Source: Raillietiella orientalis (lineage: Eukaryota). From it: a stretch of 49,362 nucleotides of DNA. Within the stretch, counting starts at the first letter, position 1, and the number at the start of each line of letters is the position of its first letter. Positions 3,949 through 49,362 of this stretch are shown piece after piece. Both the position numbers and the translations under genes were made by a program. The notes under the pieces were generated by a model. The model saw nothing but the letters and a program-made list of their open reading frames with translations, had not been told where the DNA came from and ran no database searches. The DNA is taken from positions 3,658,001 to 3,707,362 of the forward strand of contig JAYWIR010000018.1 in the NCBI GenBank assembly GCA_036172245.1, in the 5' to 3' direction.

Positions 3949-3961
3949 GTCTTCCCCTTTT

Positions 3962-15382: not shown

Positions 15383-15524
15383 TTTTCCCCAAGTCCCACG
15401 AGGGGTGGGGTAAATTTATTTTTCTAAAATTTTTCTATAAAAACATTCACACTACAATCTCATCCATACCATTAGCACTTTTTTTTACCACTATGAAGTC
15501 CTTGGGTTCTCACAAGTTCTGCAC

Positions 15525-19036: not shown

Positions 19037-19049
19037 AAAAGGGGAAGAC

Positions 19050-20864: not shown

Positions 20865-21036
20865 CCTAGCAGCTGGTCTTGCTGCACGGGACCACTGCAG
20901 GTCTTTTGCCGCGATCTCCTCGCCGCTTCTTTTTTTTTGTTTCTTCTGGAAAACTTCCTTTTTCCGGGCACACACGAGCACAATGAACTGATTAAGTTGT
21001 CAAGCGCACAATACTTCGAGCCGCGGAGCAAGTTCA

Positions 21037-21048
21037 CCGACTCGGCAG
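21037..21048 (+). repeat. Right TSD of A3 (ccgactcggcag)
   Basis: Direct repeat of 15371-15382. Confidence 0.95.
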
Positions 21049-25279: not shown

Positions 25280-25604
25280 GAACGGCGTAATCCGGTGACC
25301 CCTGCGACCTCTCGCCCACCCATACCCCGTCCCCGTTCGCTCGGTAAAATTTCCGGTGCCCATGCTTTTATCCCCGTGTCTTCCAGAGCGATCCCAAAGA
25401 CCCTTATCCCGTCCTCCTTATTCATTGTTTTTATTTTATTTTGGTTTCTTTGTGTTTCCCGCCCCCCACACCGTTCACAAAACTGTTACTCTGGCCTGCG
25501 TGCCAGCAATATTCTCTTCATTCTTGTTCAGTCGTCGGTTGGGAGTTTGGTTCCCAACTGGTTTATTTTGTATAATTGCTTTTTTTTTTGGTTATGCTAT
25601 ATGG

Positions 25605-25634
25605 AATAAACGCCCCGGCGTGACCGGGTGAGAA
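25605..25634 (+). terminator. C 3' terminus: AATAAA + cccgg/ccggg hairpin
   Basis: aataaa cg c cccgg cgtga ccggg tg agaa; no poly(A). Confidence 0.65.
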
Positions 25635-27280: not shown

Positions 27281-27295
27281 GCTCCGGAATCTCCA
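27281..27295 (+). repeat. Probable target-site spacer between tandem D1 copies (gctccggaatctcca)
   Basis: Repeated at 32834-32848, where it reads in frame as L-R-N-L-Q into E ORF2 DWDLFK; the left edge is uncertain. Confidence 0.72.
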
Positions 27296-27665
27296 TTGAA
27301 ACCCGGGTGCGCCGGGACGTTTATTCTAACGAATAAACTTATGCAATCTGTGACTGGACCAGTAGTCCAGCCACGCCCTGGAAAGATATAGCCTGCCGGG
27401 CTACCGGTGCGCAGACCGGCGCGGTCGACCTCGGCAGCAGAAAGGAGGGGGAACGAAACAAAAAGAAAACAAAAAAATAAACAAAAATCAGGGAGGGAGC
27501 GGGAAGGGATCACAGTCTGCTGGGAGGGCCCGTCATCCTCTGGAGGATGCCGGCAAGCTGTTTCTGCTTGTGTGGTTCCAGATGGGGCCATCGCGTCGCC
27601 ATCCTGAGAAAACGGGCAGCATACACGTTGGCATCCCTGTCGCTGGATCCTCCCGTCGCTTTGCT

Positions 27666-30600: not shown

Positions 30601-31091
30601 CCTGAAAGCAGGCGCAGGTTGAAATCACCTGCGATCAGGTGCGCTTTGCGAACTCCTGCATCGGTCAGCCAGTGGCGTCTCAGGGCAAGGTAGAATTCCC
30701 TTCTTGCCTTCGCCTTCAACGCGTTATTTCCGCTAGGAGCGTATAGGTTGGTGACGACCAGGTCGATAGAGTCGGACCAGCTGAGAGTCAGCTGACCGAC
30801 GCGACCTGCGTCATCGAACCGAACGTCCTTTATTGCGGTCTCGATGGCTGGCCGAAGCAGGAAGGCGACACCGCTTGATATCGCGGTGCCGCAACGCCAC
30901 AACAGCCGCCCACCCGAGATCCGTTCGATCTCCCGGGCTTGATCTGCGGAGATCACGTGGATCTCCTGCAGCAGCACCAGGTCGAAGGATGCCAGGGTGG
31001 CGGCCACGTCACGCCTCTTGCCGTCGTCGCTTAGCCCGTTCACGTTCCAACAGGCGATCAGAAGATGACGGCGAGAGGCCGTTCCCGGCAT
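27666..31091 (-). CDS. D1b ORF2 APE-RT-CCHC (1141 aa); TGG>TGA removes the last about 52 aa (natural stop 27510)
   Basis: CWNVNG, QEIH, NLYAP, GDFN, IDH, SDH, DLRKAFD, QGDSLSP, YADD, CVRC..HLLVDC. Homologs continue ..GIV(A/T)AWS.. Confidence 0.93.
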   Translation of the reverse strand: MPGTASRRHLLIACWNVNGLSDDGKRRDVAATLASFDLVLLQEIHVISADQAREIERISGGRLLWRCGTAISSGVAFLLRPAIETAIKDVRFDDAGRVGQLTLSWSDSIDLVVTNLYAPSGNNALKAKARREFYLALRRHWLTDAGVRKAHLIAGDFNLRLLSGAPDTLNDRVNELCAEMNTRNLLAGDTAMESSIDHVYLDQHLCSRVSRRGKVPSELSDHGRIMFEVRPRDKGPPSSAWRLPGDWLKFPDAAEHLRAFIRSFWMQTLQDWDRFKRSVQEFCDQFPLHRLPAGFGEGPRNERCYLQARRYARTPDMRRLAEYRAGAEREAWQSGSASLLDDQGREHSVPAQKRGIVRKFYSSLYARAPPERDVSRLLLQEGAPAIGEEEKRSLDEPFTMDEILSAIGKLKRRKAPGEDGLPAEFYQTFAAELTPLVQQLTLLIRETGDVPTSFRSAKVRLLPKGGDLRSMNNWRPITIVNADAKLIAKMWAERLGRVANIFISPEQTYAVPGRSTEANLFHASTWLELQQGRGLLSSRNSGASVGGRRNGWVGKGALAVAVDLRKAFDSVDQNLLLELLERLGFPASLLAYQRSSWRDALINVLFSGQTVHGVPVRRGIRQGDSLSPLLFSAFFELVLRAYRETLAHLPCDCPGTPAVSAYADDLLLLLPMSTPASAVEDFFDLLSRGTGLTVNRAKSSVMPVGAAWAGPQDWVRLGIPTVRYFKYLGVPLGEYSPAEAWSGCLQKAQAAIGPFQDGRFYLQERAAAWNAFAAPLLRPLLFVCPPSAESKKRTKDLLRIALWGRVRPRVRLSDLCALRRDGGLGLLTLERLELQLQFRVVAFMAGNWCTPWCLPARLLVERATGNAGLSSYFALRSPICHCGLQLRRAAKLVKNNSARILVRPANGPAWLQETVRTWAMIQEQSSQHERIALFGPHARRTLREIIENPRRRAWAQRTSLAAVLPTLREHLGSDVAAQWEVTVKIASRAKKIGDWRTGQLTNAATPRTTPNGLLRWGELLDVPEEHLEWPPVLMDSRTLPMKWQQSALMVLHWGLPCNARRHHWTRGGVNPNCVRCGEREYLPHLLVDCVALRPLWERFAAALGIPGGNPRDALRPLFVRDALPPAASLAALCCLRGIVVA

Positions 31092-32749
31092 TATGGCTGG
31101 GAAAGTGGCGTCGCGGCACCTGCCGCGGGGCAGGTGTACGAAAGGTCCATCGGTACGAGGACCATCGGAACGAGGACGGAGGCCTCTTCAGGCGCCTGGG
31201 GTACCTGTTCGGCCTCCATCCTCACCATCCCCTCCGTGTCCGAGCGTGGAATTCTCTCGGGCGACGGGTCCCGGGAGTTTCCCACGCTCATGGCACCCTC
31301 GCTACCGGAAGCCATCTCTTCCCCTGCGTCGGGGGAGACGATCTTCCGGGGCATTGTGGACTTTCGTCCTGCCTTTTTGCGGGGTGCCGCGGAGATGGAT
31401 GCTGTTTTTCCGGCCTTCACCTCGGGGTCGGAAGTGGCCGACTCCTGAGGGGATGCCGGACGCCTGACGGCCTTCTTGCCAGCCTTGGGGGCAACCGGCT
31501 GCAGCGAGGCAGCCAGCTCCTCCGCGGCGCGCTCGAAGGCGACGTCATCGAGCGTGGGCTCGATGACGGACGCCGCCGCCTCGCTCCCCTCCTTGTTGAC
31601 TTTGTCAACGGAGGGCTGAGCAGGGGCAGCAGCGAGTTCTTTAGCGCCGCATCCGTCGATGGCGGGAATCCGCTCTACAACGACGCAGCAGCTTTTAATT
31701 TTTTCGCGGCGCAGGGCGGTTTCGCTCCGTTTCGCCACGTTCTTTCCCTTCTTATGGGAGTTTTTCTTGGGGTCGACCTTCTGCCACCCTGGCTCTTGAC
31801 CCTCGCCCTCGACCTTTTCGGCGTTTTTCGCCGAAGTCTCGGGGCTGGCCTTCGCCTTGGTGACGGAGGTGACCTCCTTAGCAGCAGCACGAGCTGCCAG
31901 CTTCTTCCTTTTTTTAGCCGCGCGCTTTCTCGCGTTTTTCGCGGACACGACGCGGACTGTGTTTTGGGGGCACACCAGACGGGTGTGCCCCGCTTGTTTG
32001 CAGTGCTGGCACTGCACGCTCGGACACCTCATTTTAAGGTGACCACAGCTGCTGCAGCAGCTGCAAAACTTGAGTTTACCCACGCACCACACGTCAACGG
32101 ATTCACCGTTGACGGTGAGTTTGTGGGGAAACTCACATCCCTCGCGAACCGTCACTCGCGCTGCACCCAGGCCGTCAAGCACCCCGTCGTAATCGACAAA
32201 AGGAGTAGGCTTTCCCCACAGCGCGTGGACAGTTGCAAACTTTTCTAATTCGTTCCGGACGACCTCCTTCGTCATCCGGAACGTGATACCGGTCAGGTGA
32301 ATGATCACCGACCGGTCTTCAGTAATGGGGAGAAGCCTCCGGCTGCCCATACTTATGGGGGTTCGCAGAAGTCTCTGCGCAAGAGTTGCCTCCTTGCAGA
32401 TAACTTCCACAAATTGACCCTTGCTTCTGACGGACATAGCCAGAAGCTCCTCTTTTTGTACACCGAGAGCGCGCATCGCCTGCGAAAAGGCGCGCGCGTT
32501 CTCGGGAGAATATAAACCGCCTACCTTATATAGAAGGGGTGGGTTATACCCCTCCTCCAGGTAAGCGCGCATTTCCGCCATAGCCGCTGGCGTAGGTGCC
32601 GCAGCCACGGCGTTCCAAGCCCTGGGTAGGGCCGGGGGCGCATCCGTGCTGGCGGGAGCCTCCACTGATGCGGGAGCCCCCACCTCCATCTCCTCCGGGG
32701 GCAATGAGGTCATCACTCCCGGATCCTCACCGGTGGTGGTATCAGGCAT
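31091..32749 (-). CDS. D1b ORF1 gag-like protein, 552 aa, intact
   Basis: CSCCSSCGHLKMRC and CQHCKQAGHTRLVC knuckles; the stop overlaps the ORF2 ATG. Confidence 0.9.
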   Translation of the reverse strand: MPDTTTGEDPGVMTSLPPEEMEVGAPASVEAPASTDAPPALPRAWNAVAAAPTPAAMAEMRAYLEEGYNPPLLYKVGGLYSPENARAFSQAMRALGVQKEELLAMSVRSKGQFVEVICKEATLAQRLLRTPISMGSRRLLPITEDRSVIIHLTGITFRMTKEVVRNELEKFATVHALWGKPTPFVDYDGVLDGLGAARVTVREGCEFPHKLTVNGESVDVWCVGKLKFCSCCSSCGHLKMRCPSVQCQHCKQAGHTRLVCPQNTVRVVSAKNARKRAAKKRKKLAARAAAKEVTSVTKAKASPETSAKNAEKVEGEGQEPGWQKVDPKKNSHKKGKNVAKRSETALRREKIKSCCVVVERIPAIDGCGAKELAAAPAQPSVDKVNKEGSEAAASVIEPTLDDVAFERAAEELAASLQPVAPKAGKKAVRRPASPQESATSDPEVKAGKTASISAAPRKKAGRKSTMPRKIVSPDAGEEMASGSEGAMSVGNSRDPSPERIPRSDTEGMVRMEAEQVPQAPEEASVLVPMVLVPMDLSYTCPAAGAATPLSQP

Positions 32750-32833
32750 TGCTGCCTAATCCTCCACCCACACCACGCACAAGCACCAACGGAAATGGAA
32801 CTCAGGAGCAACGAAAAGACACGTCCGCTCGAC

Positions 32834-35800
32834 GCTCCGGAATCTCCAAGACTGGGACCTTTTTAAGGAATCGGTCCGCGAGTTCTGTGAGCAGTTCCCC
32901 CTGGATCGCCTGCCCATCGGATTCGGCGAGGGTGCTCGCAACCATCGGGCCTATTTACAGGCTCGCAGGTACGTGAGAACCCCAAATGTCCGTCGCCTGG
33001 CCGAGAACCGCGCCGGGGCCGAACGCCAGGCCTGGCAATCGGGGTCGGCCAGCTTGCTGGACGACCAGGGCCGGGAATGTTCGTCCCCGGCGTCGGTACG
33101 GCATCTCGGGCGGAGTTATTATTCCTCCCTTTACGCCAGGGCGCCCCCGGATCAAGATGCCTCTCAACTCTTGCTTCCGGATGGTGCCGTGGCAATAGGG
33201 GAGGAGGAGTCGTTAAGCCTCGATGAGCCTTTTACCACCAGCGAAATTTTCGCCGGTATCAAAAGGCTCAAAAGGCGGAAAGCTCCAGGGGAAGACGTCT
33301 TGCCTGCGGAGTTCTATCAGAGCTTCGCGGAAGAGCTGGCACCCCTGCTGCTTCAGCTGACAAGGCTGATCCTAGACGAATTCGATGTTCCCGCCTCGTT
33401 TCGGTCTGCCAGAGTGAGGCTCCTTCCGAAAGGGGCAGACCTTAGGAATTTGAACAACTGGAGTCCGATCACGATTATGAATACGGACGCCAAGTTGGTT
33501 GCCAGGCTATGGGCTTCGCGTGTGGGGCAGGTGGCAGAATCCATAATTAGCCCGGAGCAGAAATATGCTGCCCCCGGGCGAAGTATGGATGCCAACCTCT
33601 TCTTTGCGAGCACATGGATGCACGCGCAGAGGTGTCAAAAGAACGGGAAAGGAAAAATCGGCAACCCCACTTTGGGGCCGCCAGCAGGACAGGGAATGGA
33701 AACTTGGGCGGGGAAGGGGGCCTCAGCGCTCGCAGTCGATCTTCATAAGGCGTTCGACTGTGTTGACCAAGGGCTTTTGTTGAAGCTCCTGGGTCGCATG
33801 GGCTTCTCACCCTCCTCTATTACCTACCTGCGCTCTTGCTGGCGGAATGCGATAATTTCCGTCTCTTACAACAGTCAGAAGGCGCATGGCGTGCCGCTGC
33901 GGCGGGGCATCAGGCAGGGAGATAGACTGAGTTCCCTGCTCTTCAGAACCTACTTTGAGTTGGTGCTGAGAGCCTACAGGGTGACTTTGGCCTCCTTGCC
34001 GAGCTCGTGTCCCGGCACGCCTGCTGTAGCAGCCTATGCCGAAGACCTTCTGCTCCTGTTACCTATGTCCACCCGGGCGAAGGCGGTCAAAGACTTCTTG
34101 GATCTGATCAGCCGTGGGACCGGACTGCAGGTCGAGAGGGCTAAGTCGTCGGTGGAGCCAGTAAGTGCGGCGTGGGCAGGGCAGCAGGACTGGGTCCGTC
34201 TGGGGATCCACACGGCGAGGTGCTTCAAGTACCTTGATGTGCCGTTGGGTGACTACTCCCCTGCGGAGGCGTGCTCCAGCTGTCTTCAAAAAGTTGAGAC
34301 GGCGATCGGCCCGTTCCTGGAAGGCAAGTTTCGCTTGCCGGAACGGGCCGCGGTTTGGAACGCTTTTGCGGTCCCCATCCTCCGCTTCTTGCTTTTTTTT
34401 TGCCCCGCCCCCAGAGAATGCAAAAAGAGGACAAAGGACCTCCTCTGCAGAGCCCTTTGGGGCAATGGGAGGCCCCGAGTCCCTCTGAAGGACTTGTGCG
34501 CTTCGCGTCGGGAAGGCGGCCTTGGCCTCCTGACGCTGGAGCGCGTGGAAATCCAGCTGCGGTGGCGAACCCTCGCCATCGCAGCGGAGATGTGGAGCAC
34601 TTCTTGGTGCGTTCCGGTCCGCCTCCTCGCGAGGCGTTTGTCCCGATGCGAAGGACTCGCGTCGTTTCTTCTGTGCAGTGGCCGGAAGATACGAAAATGC
34701 GGCCTTATGCTCGGACGCATAGCAACCCTGGCAAAGACGAACGGTTGGATGGTTTGTGGCCCCGCCAACTACTCCGCCTGGTTGGAGGAGTCTGCTGGCA
34801 CATGGGCTAAGCAGAACCAGAGTAGTGAAAACAATATGAACTGCCTGCGAATCGGCCCAAACGCCAACCGCACCCTGCGGGAAATTCTGGAATTTCCCCG
34901 GAGTCGCAGGTGGGCGCTGACGACCCCCCTTGCTACGGCGATGCCCTACCTCCTGAGGGCGCTTCAGGATCGCCAGAAGCCGAGGTGGCAAGTCACCTGC
35001 CAGATCGCAGGCAGGGAGAAGATGTTAAGCGGCTGGACCACAGGAGAACTGGCGGACGCCACGAACCCGAGCGTCCAGCCGCGTGGATTACTGAGATGGG
35101 GTGAGCTGCACGCCATCCCTACGGATGTGCTGAAGTGGCCCTTGGTACTGAAGGAATCCAGGATCCTGCCCCTTAAGTGGCAAGAGTCGGCGTTGCTACT
35201 GCTGCACTGGGGTTTACTCTGCAACGCACGCCGCTTCCACTGGACAAGGGGAACTGTGGATCCTGAGTGTGCCAGGTGCGGGGAGCGGGAATCGCTCTCC
35301 CACCTTATTGTGGACTGTGCTGCCATCCGACCCCTCGGGGAACGGTTCGGGGCGACCCTCGGGCTCCCTACGGACAGCACTTTCAGAGACGTTCTTCGGC
35401 CCCTCTTCGTGAAGGACGCACTGCAGCCAGCCGCAGCCATCGCAGCCTTGTGCTGTGTCCGTGGCATCGTGGCGGCATGGAGCGACGCCAATAACGAAGG
35501 AGTGGGTCCACACTCGAGGGATGTCATCCCATACGCCCAACGCTTCATGCGAAGAGCTTTTGGTTGGCCCCAACTGGGGAATATACGGACGGATCTCAAG
35601 GGCTTCCTTCAACGGATGGGCACTCCTCACAGCGTTTAGTGATCCCTTCCGTGCCCACCAACTCCTTTTTGTCTGTTTATTTTTTATTTTTCTTTTTGTT
35701 TTATCCCCATCCCCCTTTGCTACTGAGGAACGCTACGCTGGGATGCGTTTCGGCGTCCTGGCAGGTCCAGTGTATATGGCCGTGAGCGGGGCCTTGTACC

Positions 35801-35850
35801 GCGGATGTAGAGTTTTAACAATAAACGCCCTGGGCGTACCCGGGTGTTAA
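32834..35850 (+). mobile_element. LINE E copy 1 (E1), 3' part downstream of the D1 insertion
   Basis: ORF2 from LQDWD to its stop, D-like 3' UTR, aataaacgccctgggcgtacccgggtgttaa terminus. Confidence 0.9.
32835..35639 (+). pseudogene. E1 ORF2 (RT-CCHC), open but lacking APE; catalytic YADD reads YAED
   Basis: ORF 32973-35639 extends upstream in frame to the D1 junction; DLHKAFD, QGDRLSS, YAED, CARC..HLIVDC. Confidence 0.9.
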
Positions 35851-35867
35851 ACTCTAAGGCCAGTTGG
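35851..35867 (+). repeat. Putative target-site spacer between E1 and E2 (actctaaggccagttgg)
   Basis: Lies between a LINE 3' end and a LINE 5' end, like the A and D1 spacers; it occurs only once, so this is inferred. Confidence 0.45.
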
Positions 35868-35952
35868 AACACGTGTTTTTCCTTCACTCCTCAAAGAGTA
35901 GTAGGAAAGCGCTTTCTTGTGTGTGGTGTTTTGTGTACATCGTCGGTGTCCA

Positions 35953-37638
35953 ATGGCCACGACGCCAAAGGAAACCGCGATGGAGGTGGGAGTGGGGGAG
36001 GCTAGTTCGCCCCCACAGCCTACTGGAGCAGGGGCAGCCGCCCTGGAATCATCTCCGGCCACGCCGAGGACATGGAGCGCAATGGTGGCCGCGCCCAGCG
36101 CAGAAGCCATGACGGAGATGGCCGCATACAAGGCCTCCGGGTACAAGCAATCGCTTGTCTACCAGGTAGGCAACTTGTTCGACGGCCGGACAGCGCGCGC
36201 CTTCAGCAAAGCGTTGAAGGACGCGAATGTTACTGAGAAGGATCTGAACGTCCTCTCCGTCCTCAGCGGCGGGCAGCGGGTCGAGGTGGTCTTCAATGAT
36301 GTCACCCTGGCTCACCGCCTAATCCATGCGCCGCTGAACGTAGACGGCCGCAAGATAATGCCAGTATCAATGGACCGCTCCGTGGTGGTCCACATGACTG
36401 GCATCAACAGCCGCATGACGCGGTCCGCTGTTGGTGAGGAACTGCGAAAGTACGGTGTGGTGCACGCACTCTGGCCGAAACCCTCCATTTTGGACGGTTT
36501 CGTGAGCCTTTTTGGTGAGCAGGCTGCAGCGCAGGTCGCCGTAAGTAAGAATTGTGGGCTTCCCTACAAACTACAGGTGGCGCGAGAAATCGTCGACCTG
36601 TGGTATGTAGGAAAGCCCCGGTATAGCGGGCATTTTGATACCGTGGGACACCTACGTAAAAGGTGTCCCAATATACAATGCCATTTGTGCGGGGAGCGGG
36701 GCCACGTTCGGCGCGTGTGCCCCAAACGCCTCACCCCGGTTCTCCCTGCTGCGAAAAAAGCGCAGGGGAAACGCGCTTCAAAGGTCTCTAGACCTAAAGT
36801 GGAAAAGGGCCAGCACAAGCTGCCAACACCTCAACCTCCGGCGCGTAAGCCGGAGGATAAACCTTCTGAAACGGTGGTAGGCGAAGAAGGATGGCAGCTA
36901 GTAGAGGCCAGAAAGCCAAAGAAACTCCCACCCGCGGAGAGCAAAAAGCGCAAGACGGCCGGTAAGCCGAAAAAACCCGGTCCGCGCTCGAAAACTCTGC
37001 GCGAGTGCACGGTGGCACTGGAACGAATCGTCGTTCCCGAGGTTGCCACCCGGAGCGTCGATCCTCCCCTTGCCGTTTCCGCTGCGCCCGAGGCTCGCGA
37101 CAGCGAACCCTCTGTTTACACAGAGGGTGAGCCGCGCGACATAGCGGCGGTCGAAGCCGCGGACGCCGCGTTCGCGCAGGCGGAGGAGGAGCTCGCGGTC
37201 ACGCTGGCCGAGCGTGAGAACCCCTCGCGCAAGGCCGTGCGAAGGCCGGCTCCGGCGAAGAAGGCCCCCACAGGTGAGTTAGACCTGGGGGCCGGAAGTA
37301 CATCCTCCTCCTCGGAGGCACCACCCAGGAAGTCGGGACTCAAGTCCCAGAAGCCCAGGATGCGCCTCCCCTCCACCAGCGAGGAGGAGAAGACGGAAGC
37401 GGTCGCCAGCGTGGGAAATTCGGAGGAGGAATTCCCACGCTCGGAAGCCGTCGATCCGGCCACCCCCATGGAGGAGGGTGAACAGGTAGGCGCGACCCTA
37501 CCTGTGGGTGACCCGCTCAACGTACAGTTTCCTATGGAGGAGGGGGACCAGGTGCCTTCAGCACCTGACCCTCCTCCTCCACCTAGCGTCCCGCCCCAGC
37601 AGGTGGCGGACGCCGCATCGCAATCTTCCCAGGATTAA
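35953..37638 (+). CDS. E2 ORF1 gag-like protein (about 561 aa), first knuckle degenerate
   Basis: Homologous to D1 ORF1 (AMTEMAAY, DRSVVVH, VHALW); CHLCGERGHVRRVC. Confidence 0.85.
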   Translation: MATTPKETAMEVGVGEASSPPQPTGAGAAALESSPATPRTWSAMVAAPSAEAMTEMAAYKASGYKQSLVYQVGNLFDGRTARAFSKALKDANVTEKDLNVLSVLSGGQRVEVVFNDVTLAHRLIHAPLNVDGRKIMPVSMDRSVVVHMTGINSRMTRSAVGEELRKYGVVHALWPKPSILDGFVSLFGEQAAAQVAVSKNCGLPYKLQVAREIVDLWYVGKPRYSGHFDTVGHLRKRCPNIQCHLCGERGHVRRVCPKRLTPVLPAAKKAQGKRASKVSRPKVEKGQHKLPTPQPPARKPEDKPSETVVGEEGWQLVEARKPKKLPPAESKKRKTAGKPKKPGPRSKTLRECTVALERIVVPEVATRSVDPPLAVSAAPEARDSEPSVYTEGEPRDIAAVEAADAAFAQAEEELAVTLAERENPSRKAVRRPAPAKKAPTGELDLGAGSTSSSSEAPPRKSGLKSQKPRMRLPSTSEEEKTEAVASVGNSEEEFPRSEAVDPATPMEEGEQVGATLPVGDPLNVQFPMEEGDQVPSAPDPPPPPSVPPQQVADAASQSSQD

Positions 37639-38105
37639 CACCTGGGCTCGCCAGTCGACGTCGGATTCGCGCCGTCTGTTGGAATGTCAACGGGCTGCGC
37701 GACGACGGTAACAGGCGAGATACAGCCGACACCCTGCGGGAGATCGACCTGGCCCTGTTCCAGGAGATCCACGTGATCACCGCGGCAGACGTCCAGGAGA
37801 TCGAGACGATCGCGGGGGGTCGACTGTATTGGCAATGCGGCATCCGAAACACCCGCGGGGTCGCGTTCTTCGTGAAGCCGGCCATCGACGCGGCCGTGAA
37901 GGGCGTGCGCTTCGATGACGACTGTCGGGTCGGTCAGCTGACTCTCGGCTGGTCCGACTCGATCGATCTGATCGTCACGAATGTGTACGCCCCAACCGGT
38001 CAAAAGGGATACAGCAACCGTACCAGGCTGCTTGAATCCCTGAAGCGCGACTGGCTGGCGAACACGAGCGTGTGGAAGGCTCACCTGATAGCGGGAGATT
38101 TGAAT
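37638..38105 (+). pseudogene. E2 ORF2 APE N-terminus (ACA at the ATG position), truncated at GDLN
   Basis: (T)PGLASRRRIRAVCWNVNG..FQEIH..TNVYAP..AHLIAGDLN. Confidence 0.85.
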
Positions 38106-38184
38106 CGAGTGCGGACGTGATTTTCTTCGCTCTCGTCTCCGTGCTTTCATCCGCTTCATCTTGGCGTCGTACATTTTGACGACG

Positions 38185-40106
38185 ATGTCGACGCAATTCG
38201 AAGATACTGAAGTTGGAGGAACAGCATCCGGATCTGCAATCGCGGAACCGACGGCTGCCTCCACTTCGTCTTGCTCGCCAGTGGAGAGGAGTTTTGCTGA
38301 CGTTGCTGGCACAGCAGCCGTCAAAAGGAAACCACTCTACGAGTCGGAGTTGCGGCATACGTAGCCCAAGGCTATAGACCTGTTCTCCGGTATAAGGTGA
38401 GTGGTTTTCTTTCAGCGCGCGACGGGAATCAGTTCAACGATGAACTGACCCGTGTTGGCGTGCGGCAGGACGACCTTCTCGCCATTATGTCCGTAAAAGA
38501 CATGAGCTATTTCAAGGTGCGTTGCAAAGACGCTGCACTTGTGCAACGCTTGCTGCGCACCCCGTTGTCGATCCGTGTCCAGAAGGTCTTCCCGGCCGCC
38601 ATGGACGACTCATTTGTGGCGGAGATTTTCGACATCGAGTCGGAAATCTCCGATATTGATATTCGGAATGCGTTGGCGAAATTCGCCACGGTCCATGCGC
38701 TGTGAAGGGTGCGTAGCAACCTCAAGGACTTCCCGTTCATACACAACGGAGTCGCTGGAGTCCGGCTTACAATGCCGGACCGCCGTCTGCTGCCCACCAA
38801 ACTACAGGTGAAAGACACGGTCGTTCACCTGTGGTTGGTGGGCAAAGTAAGAACGTGCGAGCAATGCGGGAAGGAGGGGCATTGTTTGGATAAATGCCCC
38901 TCTGGAAAATGCCGTTATTGCAAACTATCCGGGCACCAATTGAAAAATTGCCCGGATCTTTTGCGAAAAAAGGCAGCCGCGGAGCTTCATTTTAAAAAAC
39001 AAAGCGCGGATAAAAAGAAAAAATCTGCGAAAAACCTGGAGACCCCACGGCAGAAATTCCGAAAAAACGCGAGGCGGAATGTCGCCCCAAAGCAGCAGGA
39101 AACCTCGCACGCGAAGCCCTGCGTGCCCCTTCTCGCGGCAGGGGAGCCGGAAAAGAAAGGGTGCGGGGAATCCGGGGCAATGGTAAGTCCCCCTAGGCGC
39201 AATAGCTGTCCTTCGCAAGCACGCCCGGCTCTTTCGGAGTTCGAGCAACCGGCGGGGACGTCAATGGACAACGGCGGTAAGGACACTTCCAGTACCGTCA
39301 GATTTATTCCTTCACCTCCTGCAGTGGCTGAGAAGCACAAATCGGGTAAGAAGGGTTGTGCCGTGTCGACTTCGAAAGTCGGCAAAAAAAAATCCGCGTC
39401 GCGATCCAACACCGCGAAAGCGGGGAAAAATCTCACGCCGTCGCAATCGGAGAGGAAGCTCTCGACTGGCGCGGATGCCATGCCAACGAAGCGATTAAAA
39501 TCCCTTCCGAAGGCAGCGTCCATGACAAGCGTGTCGAAGCCATCCAAAGTGCTCCCGTCCAAAGACGCGGATGGCTTCAAAGATGGCAATGGAGCACAAT
39601 CTCCATTTACGGCGCCACGCGAAGTGAGGAACCGTAATGAAGTAAAGAAGACTTCAGCAAAGGTCCCTCGTGCAACTGAGCGTGAGCACGCTGAAAACGC
39701 GCGCGCCGGGAAAGCAGCCGTCACCAAAAGCGATGCTCTGGAGAAGGAAAAAGGCAACAGGACAGCTGTCAATCCAGCAGAACCTGTCACTACTTCGCGG
39801 AAGGCCCAAAACCGATCGAACATGCGCCGGTCAGACTCCGAAATGGATGCCGTTCCGATCACCGAGACGAGGACAACTCGTTCGAAAGCGTGTGCGCGCC
39901 GATCAAAAGTAGGCAGCCAGGCAACTGTAGCCGCGAAGCCACGCGAAGTCTCCACGAAACCCGACGGGATTAAGCCTGGCGTGGAGGCATTACATGCATG
40001 CAGCACGACAGAGGACGGTGGCGACCGTCCCCTCCAGCCAATCGTGCTGCTCGCCGTCTGCTCGCCGGATAAAGCGAGCAAAAAGCTGCCACCTTCCCAG
40101 CAGTAA
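38185..40106 (+). pseudogene. B2 ORF1 (frameshift near 38340, stop at 38703)
   Basis: CEQCGKEGHCLDKC and CRYCKLSGHQLKNC knuckles; homologous to B1 and C ORF1. Confidence 0.87.
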
Positions 40107-41824
40107 TGCGGGGAATCGCGTCTTCTCGTCGTCTGTCCGTAACGTGTTGGAACGTGAACGGACTGCAGAACGACGAGAAGAGGCGATTAGTAGCCAACGC
40201 CCTGCGCCCCTTCGAGCTCGCGCTCCTGCAGGAGATTCACGTAATCTCCGACGAGCAGGCAGCCGAAATCGAGGAGCGCGCAGGCGGAACGCTACATTGG
40301 CGGTGCGGCGACGCACACACGTGCTGTGTCGCGTTCCTCGTAAGAGGAAAAATGGCGGAAGCGGTGCGTAGTGTTCGTTTCGATGACGACGGACGGATAG
40401 GCCAGCTTGTCATCAAGTGGTCCGAGTCCATCGATCTCGTCGTAACGAACGTCTACGCGCCGAGTGGTTCTTGCTACCTCGAAGAAAGAGAAGCTTTCTT
40501 TGGTGTGGTGCAGAGCAACTGGCTCAACAACTCCGGCTTCCAAGTGGCGCGCCTCGTCGCTGGGGACTTCAACGTCCGCCTGCTCTCCGACGATTGGAGC
40601 CGCCCGAGGGAGCGCGCGCTGCCCATCGAGATGTGCGCGTCCGTGCACGCCGCCAACTTGATGGTCAGCGAACTTGGATTGGAAAGATCGCTCGCTCACG
40701 TTTTCCTCGATAAAAACCTGCATTCGCGTGTGGGTAGGAGAGGAAGATTTTTGACTAGGCTTTCTGACCACCACAGGTTGGAGTTTGAGATCCTTCCGCC
40801 AGGGAGGGGGCCTCCGTTGCCAAATTGGAGGATGAAGGCAGATTGGCTTAGCAACCGGAGGCTGCGGAGCATCTATGTGGATACCTCCGAGGCTTTGCCA
40901 TTCAAGAACTTGCGGACTGGGACGATCTCAAAAGATCTGTCCGCGAGTTCTGCTGCCAATTTCTTTTGCACCGGCTTCCACGCGGTTTCGGAGAGGGCGT
41001 GGCCAACAGTAGAGACTTTCTGCAGGCCCGAACATTTTCGAGACGCGCGGATGTCGGGCGTCTCGCAGAGTACATGGCGAGGGCCGAGCGCTAGGTCTAG
41101 CAGTCCGGAGCAGCATGCCTGTTGGACTACAAGGGCCAGGAATGTTCGGCCCCAGCCGAAGTACGCCGCGTTGTGAGACGCTACTACTCCTCGCTGTACG
41201 CGGAATCCTCGACGGAGGATATTCTCTCTGAGATACTCCTGTCTCAGGATGCTCGTGTTGTCGGCGAGGAGGAACGCGAACGTCTAAACGAGCCCTTCAC
41301 GGCGGATGAATTTTCGTCCGCCATCGCTGGGCTGAAGAGACGAAAGGCGCCAGGCGAGGATGGGCTCCTTGCAGTGTTTTATCAGTGCTTTGGAGTGGAG
41401 CCTATTCCCTTGATGCTGAAACTCGCGACGCTGATGAGTGAATCCGGGAATGTCCCGGATTCCTTCCGCTCAGCGAAGGTGCGTCTCCTGCCGAAAAGCG
41501 GAGACTTGCGTCAACTTAACCACTGGCGTCCGATCACCTTGATGAACTGGGACGTCAAGTTGTTTTCCAAGCTGTGGGTCGCGCGGTTGGGAAGTATCGC
41601 GGAATCTGTGGTGAGCTCGGAACAAACCTACGCGGTTCCGGGACGATGCATGGAGGCGAACATCCTTTTCGCGCGTACATCGATGCAGCTGCAGGAAGTT
41701 GTGGCGCAGCAAAGCCAGACTGCTGCAAAAGTCACTTCCGCAAGCAAGAAGAACAGGCGCCGACGGCAGGAGGGAACTCCAGGTGCCTTGGCGGTCGCCG
41801 TCGATCTCCCCAAGGCGTTCGATT
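40106..41824 (+). pseudogene. B2 ORF2 APE + RT N-terminal part, frameshift and stops
   Basis: ORFs 40106-41176 and 41122-41862, ending AVDLPKAFD at the junction. Confidence 0.9.
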
Positions 41825-44800
41825 TTCACCCGGAATTCGCCGGGGCGTTTATTGTAAAATAAACATTTACAAAGACGTGCGGTGGCTGGACCATTGCTCC
41901 AGCCACGCACGAAGAAACACAGAGCCTGCCGGGTCACCGGTTCGTAGACCGGGACCGTCCATCACGGCAGCAGGTGGAAGGGGGAAAAACAAAAAAAACA
42001 AAACAAAAAAGAAAAGAAAAGTTGGGAAAGTGAGAGAAGGGATCACAGTTGCTGGTGGGGCCGTTGCATTCTTTGCAGGATGCCGGCAAGCTCCTTCTGT
42101 ATTCCTGGATCCAGGTGGGGCCATCGGGACTCCCTCCTCAGGAACTGGGAGGACGGCTGGATGGCACCCTGGTCGCGTTGTCCTCCCGTAGCCTTGCTCC
42201 AAGCGGTGACGATCCCGCGTGGGCAGCACAAAGCTGCTAACGAGGCCGCTGGCCGAAGGGCGTCAGCAACGAAGAGGGCTTTCAGTGCGTCCCTGGGGTT
42301 ATCGCAGGGTATTCCGATGGCCGCGGCAAAGCGAAACCAAAGGGGCCGAAGGGCAACACAATCCACTAGCAGGTGGGGGAGGGAATCCCGTTCCCCATAC
42401 CTGACGCAATTGGGGTCCACCGCTCCCCAAATCCAGTAATGTCGGCGGGCGTTGCAGGGGAGTCCCCAGTGCTGCAACAGGAGAGCCGACTCCTGCCATT
42501 TTAAGGGGAGGGCGGAAGTGTTCATGAGCACCGGGGGCCACTTCAGATGTTCAATGGGAACATCGAGCAGCGCGCCCCAGCGCAGAAGTCCATTTGGAGG
42601 CGTACTCGAGGTCGCAGCGTCTGTTAACTGGCCCGTCTTCCACTCTCCTATCTTCTTCTCCTTTCCGGAGATTGTTACTGTAACCACCCACTTCGCCGCA
42701 ACATCGCTGTCCAGATCTTCCATCAGGGAGGGCAGCGCAGCAGCGAGGGGGGTGCTTCTTGCCCACGCTCTCTTCTTTGGATCCTCCAGGATCTCGCGGA
42801 GCGTGCAACTTCTGTAACCCCCAAACAGGAACCTTCGTTCCTGTTGAGAGCGCTGCATGCCTTACTGTCCCCACGTTCGAACGGTTTACTGCAACCAGGC
42901 ACTACCGTTCAACGGGCGACAGGTGAGCAATCCGGGGTTTTTCCGATACAGCGCAGCCCATCTCCGTAGCTGGAGTCCTCATCGGTTGACGCGGCGACGG
43001 AGTGCAAGAAACGACGTCAGTCCCGTCTTGCCGTTGGCTTGCTGGAGGAGACGTGCAGGGACGCACCAACAGGTGCACCACAACTCTGGAACGAGTGCCG
43101 ACAAGCGGAACTGGAGCTGAAGCTCCAGCCGCTCCAGCGTCAGGATTCCCAGACCACCATCCCGACGAGGAGCGCACAAGTCCTTCAAGCGGTCTCGGGC
43201 CCTACCGTTGCCCCAAAGGGCGACACGGAGGAGGTCCTTTGTATACTTTTTAATTCTCTCTGTGGGGGGGCGAACAAAAAGCAGGAAACGGAGGAGAGGA
43301 GCCGCGAACGTGTTCCAAACCGTGGCCCGTTCAGGCAGGAAGAACCTGCCGCCTCGGAACGGGCTGATCGCCGTCTCTACTTTTTGGAGGCAGCCGGACC
43401 ACGCTTCCGCATGGGAGTAGTCCCCCAACGGCACCCCAAGGTACTTGGAGTAAATCACCGTGGGGATCCCCAAACGGACATAGTCCTGCTGCCCTGCCCA
43501 CGCCGCATCAACTGGCATCACGGACGACTTCGCCCTGTTCACCGTAAGACCGGTTCCCCGATGCAGCAGGTCGAAGAACTCCTCGGCCGCCGCAGCCGGG
43601 GTGGACATAGGAAGCAGCAGCAGAAGGTCGTCCGCGTATGCTGAAACGGCCGGCGTACCGGCACAGTCGTGCGGCAGGTGCGCCAGATTTCCCCTGTACG
43701 CTCTCAGTAACCACTCAAAGTAGGTACTGAAGAGCAAGGGGCTCAGGCTGTCTCCCTGCCGGATCCCACGCCGCACCGGCACGCCGTGCACGGTATGCCC
43801 GCTGAAAGTAACATTGATGAGCGCGTCGGGCCAGCAGGAGCGCAGATAGGTTACTAATAAGGCCGGGAAGCCAAAGCGTTCCAGAAGCTCCAGAAGGAGA
43901 TTCTGGTCGACGCAATCGAATGCTTTCCGCAAGTCAATTGCGACCGAAAGGGCTCCCTCCCCCACCCGACCATCCAAGCCCTTGCCGGCGCACGCACCGG
44001 AATTCCGGTTGCGCACCAAGCTTCTTTCTTGTCGGAGATCTACCCAGGTGCAAGCGTGGAACAGGTTCGCCTCCATGCTTCGCCCGGGAACAGCATATGT
44101 CTGTTCCGGGCTGACGAAGATGTTGGCAACCCGTCCCAGACGCTCTGCCTAAACCTTTGCTAGCAACTTGGCGTCCGGATTCACTAGTGTGATGGGACGC
44201 CAGTTGTTTATGCTCCTCAGATCTCCTCCCGTAGGGAGGAGCCGCACCTTTGCCGAACGAAACGAGACGGGAACGTCGCATGTTTCGCGTATCAGCAAGG
44301 TGAGTTGCTGTACCAGGTGGGTAAGCTCTGCCGCGAAGGTTTGATAAAACTCCGCGGGCAGGCCGGCCTCCCCTGGAGCCTTTCGCCTCTTGAGCTTTCC
44401 GATGGCCGAGAGTATCTCGTCCATCGTGAAAGGCTCGTCGAGGGTATTTCTCTGCTCCTCCCCGATCGCTGGAGCGCCTTCCGGAAGCAGGAGTCGTGAG
44501 ACATTCCTCTCCGGAGGTGCCCTGGCATACTGGGAGGAGTAGTAACTCCGCAGCAGGCCGCGGATTTTGGCAGGTGCCGAGTGCTCCTGGCCCTGATCGT
44601 CCAGCAAGCTGGCCGATCCGGACTGCCAGGCTTGCCTCTCGGCTCCCGCTTTGTATTCCGCCAGCCTGCGGATGTCGGGGGTCCTGGCGTAACGACGGGC
44701 CTGCAGGTAGGCTCGTTCGTTACGGACCCCGGTCCCAATAACCGTAGGTAGGCGCTGGAGAGGGAACTGGTCGCAGAACTCCTGTACCGACCGCTTGAAG

Positions 44801-45470
44801 CGGTCACAATCCTGGAGTGTCCGCAGTCTGAAGCTCCGTATGAACGTGCGGAGATGTTCCGCCGCGTCCAAGAACTACAGCCAGTCCCCTGGGAGACGCC
44901 ACGCTGACGAGGGGGGCCCCTGTCGCGCGGATGGATCTCGAGGACTAGCAAGCGATGGTCGGACAGCTCGCACGGTAACTTGCCGCGCCTGCCCACGCTA
45001 GGGCACCCGTGCTCGTCAAGAAACACGTGGTCAATGCTTTCTTCCATCCCCGGTGCATTGGCCAACAAATTACAGGTGTGCACCGCCATGCACACCTCGT
45101 TGACCAGGTCACGCTCGGGATTCTGCCCATCTGGTTTCAGGCGAACGTTCAAATCGCCTGCAACCAGATGGGCATTCCGCATGCCTGCTTCGGTCAGCCA
45201 GTATCGCCGGAGGGCAAGGAAAAACTCTTTCCTCGCCCTCCTGTTCATCAGGTCCTTGCCGCTCGGTGCGTACACGTTCGTGACAATCAGATCGATCGAG
45301 TCGGACCACCTGAGAGTCAGCTGGCCGACACGACCGTTATCGTCGAACCGCACGCCCCGAGCCGCGGCCTCGACGGCTGGCCGAAGCAGGTAGGCGACAC
45401 CGCAACTTTTCGCTCTCTCACACCTGTACCATAGCCGCCCTCCGGAGATCGGTTCGATCTCCTGCGCTCG
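41825..45470 (-). mobile_element. LINE D2 copy b (D2b), ORF2 and 3' UTR, cut at its 5' side by C2
   Basis: 3' terminus aataaacgccccggcgaattccgggtgaaaa at 41823-41853(-); ORF2 and UTR are related to D1. Confidence 0.9.
42043..45470 (-). pseudogene. D2b ORF2 (APE-RT-CCHC), frameshifts and stops
   Basis: ORFs 44292-45482, 44149-44871, 42979-44076 and 42043-42858. Confidence 0.9.
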
Positions 45471-46830
45471 TACAGTGCACACGTGTTTCCGCGTCTATCC
45501 GCGCCAACGATCGGGCAACTTTGTGCCTGCGTTTTTGCTCGCACTTGTGTGTTCCTGTGCAATCTGCCAAGTAGCATAGTGCAACATGGCCAGTACACAG
45601 GATAGTGTGGAGGAGCAAGCCACTGGATGCACTTCAGCTGCACTTGAAGTGGCCGCATCCTCCGTAATGGTTTCCTCGCCCCCGGTGAGGAGTTACGCCG
45701 TCGTTACCTCCCAAAGACCAGGACCCTGCGATGCGGAGTTCCAGGCATATGTGTCATCAGGATACATGCCTGCACTCCGTTATAAGGTCAGTGGGCCACT
45801 TAACGGGAGAATCGGTCGTGAGCTCAATGATGAGCTCGTCCGGATAGGCGTTCGCGAGGAGGAACTCCTTGCCATAATGCCTGCTGGCAGGATGGAATAT
45901 ACGAAGATTCGGTGCAAGAACGCAGCACTTGTGCAGCGCCTTCTCCGTACGCCGTTGACCATCAAAGGCAAGGAAGTCCTACCTACCGCGATGGACGACT
46001 CTTTTGTCGTTCAATTGTGCGACATCGAACCGGAAATCTCCGACCGCGATGTCGTAAGTGTGCTGGCGAAGTTCGCCACCGTGCACGCTCTGTGGAGGAG
46101 GCCAAATCCTCTAAAGGATTTCCCCTCTGTCCACATTGGACAAGCCTCCGCGAGGATCACCGTCGCGAACAGGCGTGTTGTGCCTGAGCAGCTGCAGGTG
46201 AACGGCACGGTCGTTCACCTGTGGTTCATAGGCCAGACTCGCGCGTGCGAGCAGTGCGGCAAGGATGGGCACCGAATTAAAGAGTGCCCCTCTCCAAGAT
46301 GCCGCTATTGCAAAGATTCCGGGCACGAAATCAAGAAGTGCCCGGTACTTGCAAGAAAAAGAGCCGCAGCGGAAATTCGTCGGGTTCAAGAGACCACTGC
46401 ACGAAAAGCCGCAGCGGCAAATAAAAAACGTCGTCCGCAAAAACTCGAAAAAAACCACGAGCGATCCGCGGATAAAAAGAAAGCATCCCCGCCCGCAACG
46501 CCCCGAAAGGGGAAAGTCACGGCGGGGAAGCCAATTAAAAAGGGGCGCGAGGGTTTGACGCGTGCCGTGCCTTCCCTCTCTGCCGAACTCGCAGGCACCT
46601 TTCCGAACCTGGAACCAGGAAATCTCCGTAACACCCTGGAGGGAAAGGTAGGAAAACAGGAAGATCGCAACAGTGCGAAGACTTCTTGCCCCGTTCCGTT
46701 GTCCCTTCCGAGTTCCGGACAGCCCCACTGCAGCGCAGGCCCCACTGCAAAGGCTACGAAAGCCGTAAAAAGCAGCGTCGCAACGAGCAAAAGCACGCTG
46801 CATGCAGTCGCCCCATCGCCGACTCGGCAG
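45471..46830 (+). mobile_element. LINE C copy 2 (C2), 5' UTR + ORF1 up to the A insertion
   Basis: Near-identical to 14023-15382. Confidence 0.92.
45586..46830 (+). pseudogene. C2 ORF1, N-terminal part, interrupted by A4
   Basis: ORF 45586-46875 reads through into the antisense A 3' UTR. Confidence 0.9.
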
Positions 46831-46831
46831 G

Positions 46832-49362
46832 TTTCCCCAAGTCCCACGAGGGGTGGGGTAAATTTATTTTTCTAAAATTTTTCTATAAAAACATTCACAC
46901 TACAATCTCATCCATACCATTAGCACTTTTTTTTACCACTATGAAGTCCTTGGGTTCTCACAAGTTCTGCACTCATGGTGGGTTTCCTACTGTTTGGTCC
47001 CGGGCGTCGTCTTCTATCCTCTTCAGGATGAATCGGTACGTCCAGGCTTGGATTTTCCCACAGTTTCTAATGCCGATTTCCCTCTTCAGGAGCCCTTGTA
47101 GGATCTCCATCGGTGGTGCGGCTCTTCTGGCTTTCCTCATTTTCCACCACCGCACAAGTATGGCGGTGATGAAGAGGGCGATGGTCGTCCTCACCATGGG
47201 ATTGTAACAGGGAACATTACCATCCCCCTGAAACATCCCGGCGAGGATCTCCATTACGGATCTGTTCGTAAGTCCGATGATCCTTTTCAGGATCAGCCAG
47301 TCATGCAGCAATGTGGGACACGTCAAGACGTGAAGTCTCGTGTCGATGTCTCCACATGCTGCGCAGTCTCGGTCTTCCCGTCTTCCTGTGAAGTGCTGCA
47401 ATCGGGACCCACTCTGGATTCCTCCGTGATAAAACATCAGGAGGTCATCCTGGGTGCCCGGCGGAAGGTCACTCCTCCAGAGCGTCGTGCCGATCGCTAA
47501 CAGGTTGAACCGTTCACTCCCGTAGCGTTCGGTGGCTTCCTGGAGGGCACTGGTGTCACGGTCGTTTTCTTGGATAAGCCTTCGGAGGTTTGTTCTGGTT
47601 ACCCTCGACCATGCGAAGTCGTTGTGGTTGAACCACACTTCGCGGGTCCTGTGGGTAAACCTTCCTAACATCATCTCTGTATACCGAAGTATACGTGTTT
47701 GATGTAGGTAGCCTCCTCGCCTCCACTCCTGGATTTGCAGTAGGGTAACTCTGGACCGCTGGTAGATCCAGCTTCTCGTGTCCGGCGGGACAGGAAGCAA
47801 CCAAGGGATCACCAGGATGGACTCGTCCTGCCAGAGTTCCCTGCTTCGCGGCACGATCTTGATTTGGTGCTTCCGCACCAGCCGTTGCTTCCTCCTCCAG
47901 GTCGGGTCGATTGTTATCCATTCCCCTACTTTGCCTAGCAGCGCAGTCATCAGGCCTTTCGAGTTGTTAAGCAACAACGCGTAGGCCCTGTGCGCCGCAT
48001 ACGGCCAGTCATCCCAGTAAGTGGCAATGTCCAGGATGTGTCGCGTATCCATGATTTCCATGGAATGTGCAAGCGACTTCATCCCGGAACCGCCTTCTTC
48101 CCTGGGACGACACAGGGGTTTCAGTCTTACTCTTGGGCGATAGTGGCCCCAGAGTGTTTTTCTTTGCAGCTTGTCGAACTCCCTAGTAGTGTCCTTGTTC
48201 ATCCTAGCGGAGACCGCCCCGAAGAGCACTTTTGGAAAAAGTACTCCGTTCCATATATTGGCCTTTCGCTTCATTCCAAGGTCCGTTCGGGTGTACTTGG
48301 CTGCTTCCTTGGCCGTTTTCCCTAGGATCTCGGTCCACAATAGCTTCGACGAGGAGACGTCGCCAATGTAGACACCCAGGTACATGGCCTTGTCCACCGT
48401 TCGGAATCCTCTCCCCGCTAGAGTGGAGAGATCGAAGATTTCAACGGGCAAAAGCTGGCTTTTCTGGGCGTTGATCTTTAGACCCAGGCCTTGATCCATC
48501 AGGTCTACCACATCCAGAAACGCTCGTTGATTTCTCTCTCTTGATAAAGAAGAGTAGATCATCAGCGTATGCCAGATGGGTAAGACGCTGGCCATCGATT
48601 ATTATGCCTTGCAGTCGTCCGCTCTTCTCGATAGAGGACGACAACGCCTCCATGTAGATGACGAACATCATCGGACTTTGCGAATCGCCCTGCCGGACTC
48701 CCCGTTCCATCCGGATTGCTGCCGTCTCCTGGCCGTTGATTTCGATTCGGCAGTACTGGTTTTGGAGTACCGCCCTCACGAAGTTGCTGAAGTGTTCCGG
48801 AAGGCCTAGCTTCTCCTGAAACTTCAGCAGCATCCCATGGTCGATGGAGTCGAAGGCCTTCTACATGTCAGTGAACACCAGCGCCAGGTTCTCGCCGACG
48901 TATCGGCTGAGTCCGACGGTGGCCTAAGCACACTTGACATTGTCCGACATGTAACGTCCAGGGATTGCACACGTTTGGACCGGAGAGATGAGCCTCAACA
49001 TGACCTTGCCTAAGCGGTTGGACCAGATCTTCGCCAACCACTTGGCATCCGAGTTCAGGATCGAGATTGGCCTCCATTGAGCGACCTGCGTGAGGTCGCC
49101 TCCTTTTGGCAACAATCTCATCCGACTCTCGTAGAAGGACTGTGGAAGTCTTCCTTCTTCTCGGATGCAGAGGGTCAACTGGTGGAACAAACGCAGGTAG
49201 GCATGCAAGTACTGCTGATAGTGAGTGATGGGTACGCTGTCAGGGCCCGCTGCCACGTCCTTGCGTAGTTGACCAAACGCAGTCTTTACCTTGTCTTCGG
49301 AGAATTCCTCCTCCAGTCTGTTCCGCTGGAGGTCGTCGGTCCTCTTCTCGAGATAGCTCAAG
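46832..49362 (-). mobile_element. LINE A copy 4 (A4), 3' part; continues beyond the window
   Basis: A 3' terminus plus ORF2 pieces 46973-48595, 48441-48833 and 48924-49361. Confidence 0.92.
46973..49362 (-). pseudogene. A4 ORF2 RT-CCHC part, disrupted
   Basis: YADD and CAAC..H..C motifs; stops near 48868 and 48924, frameshift near 48540. Confidence 0.9.

Follow-up and report, generated by a model that had tools for sequence, protein, structure and literature searches.

Clusters of long interspersed elements (LINEs) of the L1 type, inserted in one another over tens of kb of GC-rich DNA, are known from green algae (Coccomyxa, Chlorella, Chlamydomonas). According to excerpts of the published accounts, nested Zepp clusters measure 1.5-42 kb with 61% GC (PMC3446292), and ZeppL clusters lie at putative centromeres (PMC8226300). 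Here we describe a stretch of 49,362 nt from Raillietiella orientalis (assembly GCA_036172245.1, contig JAYWIR010000018.1, positions 3,658,001 to 3,707,362, hereafter the window) which consists of 15 LINE pieces, wall to wall over 49 kb and nested up to five deep. The joint of main interest, at 41823/41824, is the place where one copy, B2, runs into another, D2, at the reverse transcriptase (RT) codons for the motif KAFD; A, B, D, E and F are clade or copy labels used here. The analysis covers this single window, mapped by self-alignment and by terminus mapping. We conclude that the window is a new instance of a nested LINE cluster, an ordinary kind of structure, made here of several clades. 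Its present value is that of a well-resolved nested-LINE example, mainly useful as repeat-cluster annotation.

The likeness to Zepp and ZeppL is one of architecture. Unlike Zepp, where one family is involved, at least three clades (A, B and D) with many lineages are interleaved here, and the elements carry a conserved 3′ hairpin motif and a short tail, with no visible poly(A). A second point of comparison is Tx1L of Xenopus, presented in the published excerpts as a sequence-specific LINE of the L1 superclade with an apurinic/apyrimidinic endonuclease (APE), which inserts into the DNA transposon Tx1D (PMC1950540, PMC6719617). As for Tx1L, an APE-type LINE endonuclease chooses a site within another mobile element. 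Unlike here, the specificity of Tx1L has been proven biochemically and by many copies; the hosts in the window are coding regions of other LINEs, and A and B each recur with 2-4 copies, whereas D2 has only 1. Finally, interruption-based chronologies of transposable elements (genome-wide defragmentation, TinT) order families in time by asking who interrupts whom, as outlined in the excerpted descriptions (PMC1914374, PMC3014933). The method needs genome-wide counts, whereas the window yields 1 D-in-B and 4 B-in-D events.

The joint between B2 and D2

B2 (38106..41823, plus strand) is a B-clade LINE with a complete 5′ end, a first open reading frame (ORF1, 38706-40103), an endonuclease and the start of the RT, and its sequence breaks off immediately past the KAFD codons (41812-41823). 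Its Pfam matches are Exo_endo_phos (7.2e-08) and RVT_1 (4.8e-05, under the curated cut-off because truncated). D2 (41824..45461, minus strand) is a D-clade LINE extending from its 3′ terminus back to the middle of its endonuclease, antisense in B2. The plus strand from 41800 to 41823 is gtcgatctccccaaggcgttcgat (...GCC GTC GAT CTC CCC AAG GCG TTC GAT), followed by ttttcacccggaattcgccggggcgtttatt / TTTTCACCCGGAATTCGCCGGGGCGTTTATT, and left of the joint the B2 RT frame reads ...AVAVDLPKAFD. B2 40310-41824 aligns at 77.6% to the minus strand of another B-clade copy, B1 (3396-1879), and the alignment ends there; from 41828 on, D2 aligns to the D-clade copy D1 (27301-30939) in the same orientation, at 78.3% over ~3650 nt. 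The D2 3′ motif lies at 41828-41853 (minus strand) and its tail, GAAA(A), at 41824-41827, 1-2 T/A bases at 41823-41824 being assignable to either element. Seen from D2, the 3′ flank is the antisense of the B-clade KAFD codons, TCGAACGCC....

The 3′ motif, AATAAACGYCCYGG(N4-8)CCGGGT, was found 4 times in the window against 0 expected (100 shuffles), and is common to all four B/D-type 3′ termini. It is followed by tails of 5-7 nt, GAAAA in D2 and GAGAAA, TTCAA and GTTAAAC in the other three. Because its tail length matches these three, the D2 3′ end is complete at the joint. Target-primed reverse transcription gives complete 3′ ends. Since D2 has a complete 3′ terminus while B2 is without its whole 3′ half, which target-primed insertion cannot yield, D2 entered B2 and not the reverse. 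This means that D2 is younger than B2. The original prediction, made from the sequence alone, had B2 running straight into the antisense 3′ end of D2, and the alignment breakpoints together with the complete D2 terminus agree with it. The near-identical empty site that it placed in B1 was also recovered, as uninterrupted KAFD codons (1891-1880, minus strand) in AVAVDLHKAFDCVN, with a frame reading through ...KAFDCVNQALL.

We consider it probable that the joint is an ordinary insertion of a D-clade LINE into B2 within a LINE nest, and that the position of D2 at KAFD does not reflect an evolved specificity. D2, which is L1-like and now dead, would have entered the older B2 by target-primed reverse transcription, in antisense and within the RT coding region. 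The B2 sense strand would have been nicked just after ...GGCGTTCGA(T), i.e. ...GGCGTTCGAT^T, and the complete 3′ stem-loop terminus of D2 would have been joined at the nick. The choice of KAFD would then be incidental, or weakly motif-guided.

The sole public run with related DNA (share of words 0.22) consists of contigs only. One contig of 3755 nt is 96.5% identical to 38077-41822, that is the end of F plus B2, and ends 7 nt past the KAFD joint, which is uninformative either way; none of the contigs listed bridges 41823/41824. Most apparent joints in this run are cross-mapping among the paralogues D1, D2 and E, and only two, which link non-equivalent places, were used below. Another contig (864 nt, 99.7% to 45470-46333) starts at the 5′ terminus of the B-clade copy C4. 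Contigs of this run end where elements end, which one would expect if, in that genome, a given terminus adjoins several different sequences.

Nest order and recurrent insertion sites

From host to guest, the right half of the window is a nest five deep: F, B2, D2, C4, A4. F (35853..38105, plus strand) is a D-like LINE comprising its 5′ end, an ORF1 (zf-CCHC) and an endonuclease (Exo_endo_phos) up to the GDLN codons, and it hosts B2 in the same orientation. The amino acid identity of its endonuclease is 58% to D1 and 49-50% to B2 and B3. C4 (45462..46828, plus strand), the 5′ part of a B3-lineage element, cuts D2 at 45461/45462, antisense in the D2 endonuclease at the EIE(R/P)I codons. A4 (46829..49362, minus strand), an A-family LINE, is antisense in C4 ORF1 and runs off the window. 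The closing halves of this nest, including the other half of B2, would lie beyond position 49362. It was built in turn, with B2 inserting into F, D2 into B2, C4 (B3 lineage) into D2, and A4 into C4. The alternation of layers would record different lineages that were active one after the other, or at overlapping times, in a region rich in LINEs.

In the left half, a D2-type element, Dx, hosts both B1, which in turn hosts A2/A1, and B3, which hosts A3. The Dx fragment (13691..14013, minus strand) is a 323-nt endonuclease piece between B1 and B3, running from the EIERI to the GDFNVC codons with 107 codons open. It is 90.4% identical to D2 45139-45461 (292/323) and 73.1% to D1. B1 is represented by a 5′ part (12347..13690, minus strand; 5′ untranslated region and ORF1), cut by A2, and by an ORF2 part (1..3396, minus strand) with the intact KAFD site. 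That these parts belong to one element is suggested by their orientation and order, which fit, ~830 nt of B sequence being missing beside the 5′-truncated A1. A1 (3394..7621, plus strand) and A2 (7622..12346, plus strand) are head to tail within B1 ORF1, antisense. B3 (14014..15380 and 21047..25635, plus strand) is a B-clade LINE split by the A-family copy A3 (15381..21046, minus strand), and its two pieces, once joined, are colinear over the A3 insertion point with B2, which has no interruption there. On its right, B3 is flanked by D1′ (25636..27295, minus strand), the 5′ part of a D element.

Several joints place B-clade elements inside D-like endonucleases. Put together, the flanks of B3 restore one D endonuclease site, antisense ...GATCCGTTCGA[TCTC]CCGGGCTTG, which matches the unoccupied site of D1 exactly, with a 4-5 bp target-site duplication, (A)TCTC. 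The C4-D2 joint falls on the same nucleotide as the B3-Dx joint, and C4 is 95.8% identical to B3 14014-15380 (1310/1367). The complete 5′ end of B1 (13690) comes after the GDFNVC codons of Dx and that of B2 after the GDLN codons of F; in both cases the guest has the orientation of its host, and the two joints are ~10 nt apart. The earlier claim that B1 sits inside a D2-type APE at 13689 was therefore correct, the B-clade 5′ end at 13690 abutting the D2-type fragment 13691-14013. Actually, the cutting of D2 itself by the B-clade copy C4 is stronger evidence for B-in-D insertion than this B1 joint. In total, 4/4 visible B-clade 5′ joints are in a D-like endonuclease, at two sites. The GDxN site is occupied in 2/4 copies (Dx and F) and empty in D1 and D2; the EIERI site is occupied in 2/4 (Dx and D2) and empty in D1 and F.

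The A elements recur as well. Their 3′ ends in B1, B3 and C4 fall in one alignment column of the B-clade ORF1, always antisense, and the B2 site is empty. At this site the hosts B1 and B3 are ~69% alike while the guests A2 and A3 are ~91% alike, which means that at least two of the A-in-B-ORF1 events were independent. If the A-in-B-ORF1 and B-in-D-endonuclease sites hold genome-wide, these lineages would be specialists for coding sequence that belongs to other LINEs. If so, this would bear on the growth of LINE-only clusters (e.g. those of the algal centromere type) and on the evolution of APE endonuclease specificity among sister lineages in one genome.

Two further observations were made on these joints. 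The flanks of B3 are unlike: the right one (25636-27295) is 95-97% identical to D1, and the left one (13691-14013) is 73% identical to D1 and 90% to D2. The D copy may be chimeric, it may have undergone gene conversion from its neighbour D1, or two B3-type copies occupying one site may have recombined. Moreover, 13691-17919 and 45139-49360 form a 4.2-kb repeat of 94.3% identity, which spans the D endonuclease piece, the B 5′ part and A. Taken part by part, identities are 90.4% for Dx/D2, 95.8% for B3/C4 and 94.2% for A3/A4 (2386/2532), the first differing from the second (Fisher P = 0.0002). Dx/B3/A3 and D2/C4/A4 may come from a segmental duplication rather than from two sets of events; because the three parts differ in identity, we lean towards repeated insertion at the same nucleotide.

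The original prediction also proposed that D2 and the B clade target each other, D2 at KAFD. Among the 10 KAFD-encoding sites of the window (4 in A, 3 in B, 3 in D/E), that of B2 alone is occupied, i.e. 1/10, or 1/6 among B/D copies, and none of the near-identical sites in B1, B3, E and D2 itself is occupied. The window has three D-clade 3′ junctions, each at a place of its own: D2 ends in the B2 RT, and D1 and E abut the first base of D1′ and of F, respectively. In the public run, with a likeness threshold of 80, a D1-type 3′ end is joined to an F-like endonuclease near 37819 (one contig), and an E-type 3′ end to D1, antisense, near 30208 (one contig). For the D2 lineage n=1 3′ junction is visible in the window, the other D2-type copy, Dx, running off it. 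Occupancy of the target is low, with KAFD at 1/10 and exact CGTTCGAT sites found at a junction in 2/5 of cases. Based on a single junction, 1/10 KAFD sites occupied, and D1 and E 3′ junctions elsewhere, the proposed targeting is not borne out. A common nick motif was also looked for across the B/D junctions and none was found, the primer strands ending in ...CGA, ...AGA, ...CCA and ...AGA.

Some points weigh against an ordinary insertion of D2 free of site preference. D1 (85%) and E (67%) are lineages apart from D2, and their sites weaken a D2-specific target without strictly refuting it. The flank of the D2 3′ joint, AAGGCGTTCGAT, and that of the B3 5′ joint, CCGTTCGATCTC, have the 8-mer CGTTCGAT in common, immediately beside the joint. 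The two junctions are non-homologous, the 8-mer being KAFD sense in B2 and EIERI antisense in Dx. The window contains it 5 times where 1.5 would be expected, and two of these occurrences are the D2 and B3 joints. Simulated sets of six 12-nt host flanks yielded a common 8-mer in 1.9% of 20000 draws; a looser simulation, with wider windows that include the element side, gave 29% of 5000 draws, and the test was designed after the match had been seen. The shared 8-mer is a lead only. Site preference being a property of this LINE guild, D2 might share it. Finally, the other half of B2 and any D2 target-site duplication would lie beyond the window.

Reciprocal targeting would suppose a D2-lineage endonuclease specific for a motif (~CGTTCGAT) in the KAFD codons of the B-clade RT, and B-clade endonucleases specific for the D-clade endonuclease gene, the conserved motifs serving as safe landing sites. 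We regard this as unlikely. It would account for the 8-mer common to the D2 and B3 joints (P ~0.02, post hoc), for the recurrence of the B clade in D-like endonucleases (GDxN 2/4 and EIERI 2/4 occupied) and of A in the B-clade ORF1, and for the presence of CGTTCG at the D2-type GDxN site too (45142-45147); the excerpted work on Tx1L inserting into Tx1D offers a precedent (PMC1950540, PMC6719617). However, only one D2 junction is available, 9/10 KAFD and 3/5 exact CGTTCGAT sites are empty, and D1, E and the two joints of the public run are elsewhere. In addition, D2 and B3 prime from opposite strands of the 8-mer, which one nick specificity does not explain, and Dx/B3/A3 and D2/C4/A4 may be one segmentally duplicated event, which would leave fewer independent B-in-D events.

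A wider version extends this to a guild of co-resident L1-like lineages, whose endonucleases would be tuned to short motifs in each other's coding sequence: A to the B-clade ORF1, B, in either orientation, to those codons of the D-clade endonuclease that carry CGTTCG, and D2 to the same 8-mer in the KAFD codons of the B-clade RT. We hold it to be equally doubtful. If it were true, rival copies would be safe havens, LINE-only clusters would be self-growing, and reciprocal targeting would be one edge of the network. Very unlikely, finally, is a joint that is not an insertion (deletion endpoint, ectopic recombination between repeats, a segmentally duplicated piece, or an assembly error among dense repeats): the 94.3% repeat points to duplication and possibly recombination, the B3 flanks differ sharply in their likeness to D1 (97% vs 73%), and the 96.5% contig stops 7 nt past the joint without bridging it, but a deletion or crossover endpoint would have to hit exactly the last base of the complete D2 3′ tail, the two sides are without homology at the joint, and the pattern of a complete terminus against a cut host is repeated at every layer.

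Lineages and the order of their activity

An identity matrix and a tree were computed from the 900 nt upstream of KAFD. B1, B2 and B3 are 72-75% identical to each other, D1 and D2 85%, E and either D1 or D2 67-69%, B and D copies 60-63%, and the A copies 91-94%. Differences among the B copies amount to 42-45% at third codon positions and 15-21% at positions 1 and 2, and a third-codon bias is likewise found for D1/D2 and D1/E. Because the differences concentrate at third codon positions, B1, B2 and B3 are separate lineages that diverged while active or under selection, and not decayed copies of one family.

Drawn between lineages, the interruptions are as follows: F is interrupted by B2, B2 by D2, the D2-type by B1 and by B3/C4, and B1, B3 and C4 by A. 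This graph is acyclic, and plain age layering fits it. Two-way interruption was not seen between single families and is present only at the clade level, where B2 hosts D2 which hosts C4. The original prediction had seen here a cycle rather than age layering; this reading fails, as it needs B1, B2 and B3 to be lumped, yet they are only 72-75% alike. The accompanying proposal of overlapping periods of activity for B and D2 stands at the clade level, B-in-D and D-in-B insertions both being real, and falls as a mutual cycle between lineages. We conclude that, throughout one long period, active members existed in the B clade as well as in the D clade.

Two-way interruptions are the expected sign of overlapping activity in interruption-based chronologies. 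B and D are sister clades, each with several long-separated lineages in the genome; overlapping activity is expected since sister clades share a genome. Compared to the D1 ORF2, D2 has 1 frameshift and 7 in-frame stops, and E has none. B2 has 1 frameshift and 2 stops in 1.8 kb compared to the B3 ORF2; in B1, 2 frameshifts and 5 stops were counted. These decay counts fit old insertion events. The original prediction also had the B and D2 lineages disable each other; the host copies may have been already dead at the time of insertion.

Element class, intact copies and termini

Each long ORF with a Pfam match, among the 137 stop-to-stop ORFs of the window that were scanned, is LINE-derived, with Exo_endo_phos and RVT_1 in ORF2 and zf-CCHC in ORF1. 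In the D1 ORF2, Exo_endo_phos (2.7e-15, residues 47-254) is followed by RVT_1 (4.9e-23, residues 495-763); both domains are also present in B3 ORF2 and in A1. The zf-CCHC domain was matched in ORF1 of A2, A3, B3 and C4, and in that of F with an E-value of 3.2e-4, no single stretch passing alone. A conserved C-x2-C-x4-H-x4-C block is visible in the alignment of the B-clade ORF1. Compared with solved structures, the 1173-aa D1 ORF2 matched human L1 ORF2p best (7.6e-49), R2 proteins being at ~1e-12 to 1e-14. Its nearest relatives in the protein database have 22-35% identity only, and Xenopus RT proteins are among its distant matches (25-28% identity). From these domain matches, the elements are classified as APE-type non-LTR (long terminal repeat) retrotransposons, i.e. 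LINEs, of the L1 superclade, an assignment that does not tell L1 from Tx1.

Other searches were less productive. A search of the window against Rfam returned zero families, the atlas search returned generic APE+RT clusters only, and a protein-database search with the 253-aa B2 ORF that reads across the joint gave nothing at E≤1e-10. A metagenome scan with the 3′ motif yielded 34 loci, against ~36 expected by rough arithmetic; none had an RT, or tblastn or blastn likeness to the window, and they were discarded as chance hairpins. Long stop-free frames opposite real LINE ORFs are common, as for instance at 38990-40186 (minus strand), 399 aa antisense to B2 ORF1. They abound because the window has a G+C content of 54-62%. 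ORF intactness or length was thus rejected as a measure of age or coding capacity, being weak in GC-rich DNA where long spurious antisense ORFs abound.

D1 (27296..32848, minus strand) is a full-length D-clade LINE with an intact 1173-aa ORF2 (27669-31187), neither its two B-clade sites nor its KAFD site being occupied. E (32849..35852, plus strand) is a 5′-truncated D-clade LINE whose first base abuts the D1 5′ terminus. The two copies are head to head at 32848/32849; D1 also has a 554-aa upstream ORF, and E is without a stop over 879 aligned codons. D1 and E are candidates for recently active copies.

Concerning 3′ ends, the B and D copies end in AATAAACG-CCCGG-loop-CCGGGT plus 5-7 nt, and the A copies in ...GGGGAAAACT. 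The poly(A) or A-rich 3′ tail expected of the L1 superclade was not found at the B, D and A 3′ ends of the window. As read from their sequence, these ends seem more like those of 'stringent' LINEs with a 3′ stem-loop. The hairpin showed 0 compensatory changes over 5 pairs in 4 sequences, and so gains no support from covariation beyond its conservation.

Three joints are exactly head to tail, a 3′ tail running without spacer into base 1 of a copy whose 5′ end is complete: A1 to A2 (7621/7622), D1 to D1′ (27296/27295) and E to F (35852/35853). Such joints could come from a template jump or from insertion at 5′ termini. In template jumping, the R2 RT, having reached the 5′ end of an RNA, reportedly continues at the 3′ end of a second one. 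The three joints, exact from 3′ tail to first base, resemble template-jump chimeras; unlike such chimeras, D1 and E have an intact ORF2 while their downstream partners, D1′ and F, host old insertions. For this reason the D1 and E joints would be explained better by distinct, later insertions at 5′ termini than by a single combined event.

Two features of 5′ ends were also observed. The first 10 nt of the A copies, GCCGAGTCGG (7622-7631 and 21037-21046), are also found just past the A3 and A4 3′ ends in B3 and C4 ORF1, antisense (15371-15380 and 46819-46828), and the A2 3′ flank in B1 is without them. This repeat could stem from a target-site duplication of 10 bp, or from an element whose 5′ end matches its own target. 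The 5′ termini of the B, D and F copies (38106, 13685, 14014, 27295, 32848 and 35853) have a (A)CGTG(T/A)TTT core within their first ~35 nt, some with CACGTG, and this core may be an internal promoter element.

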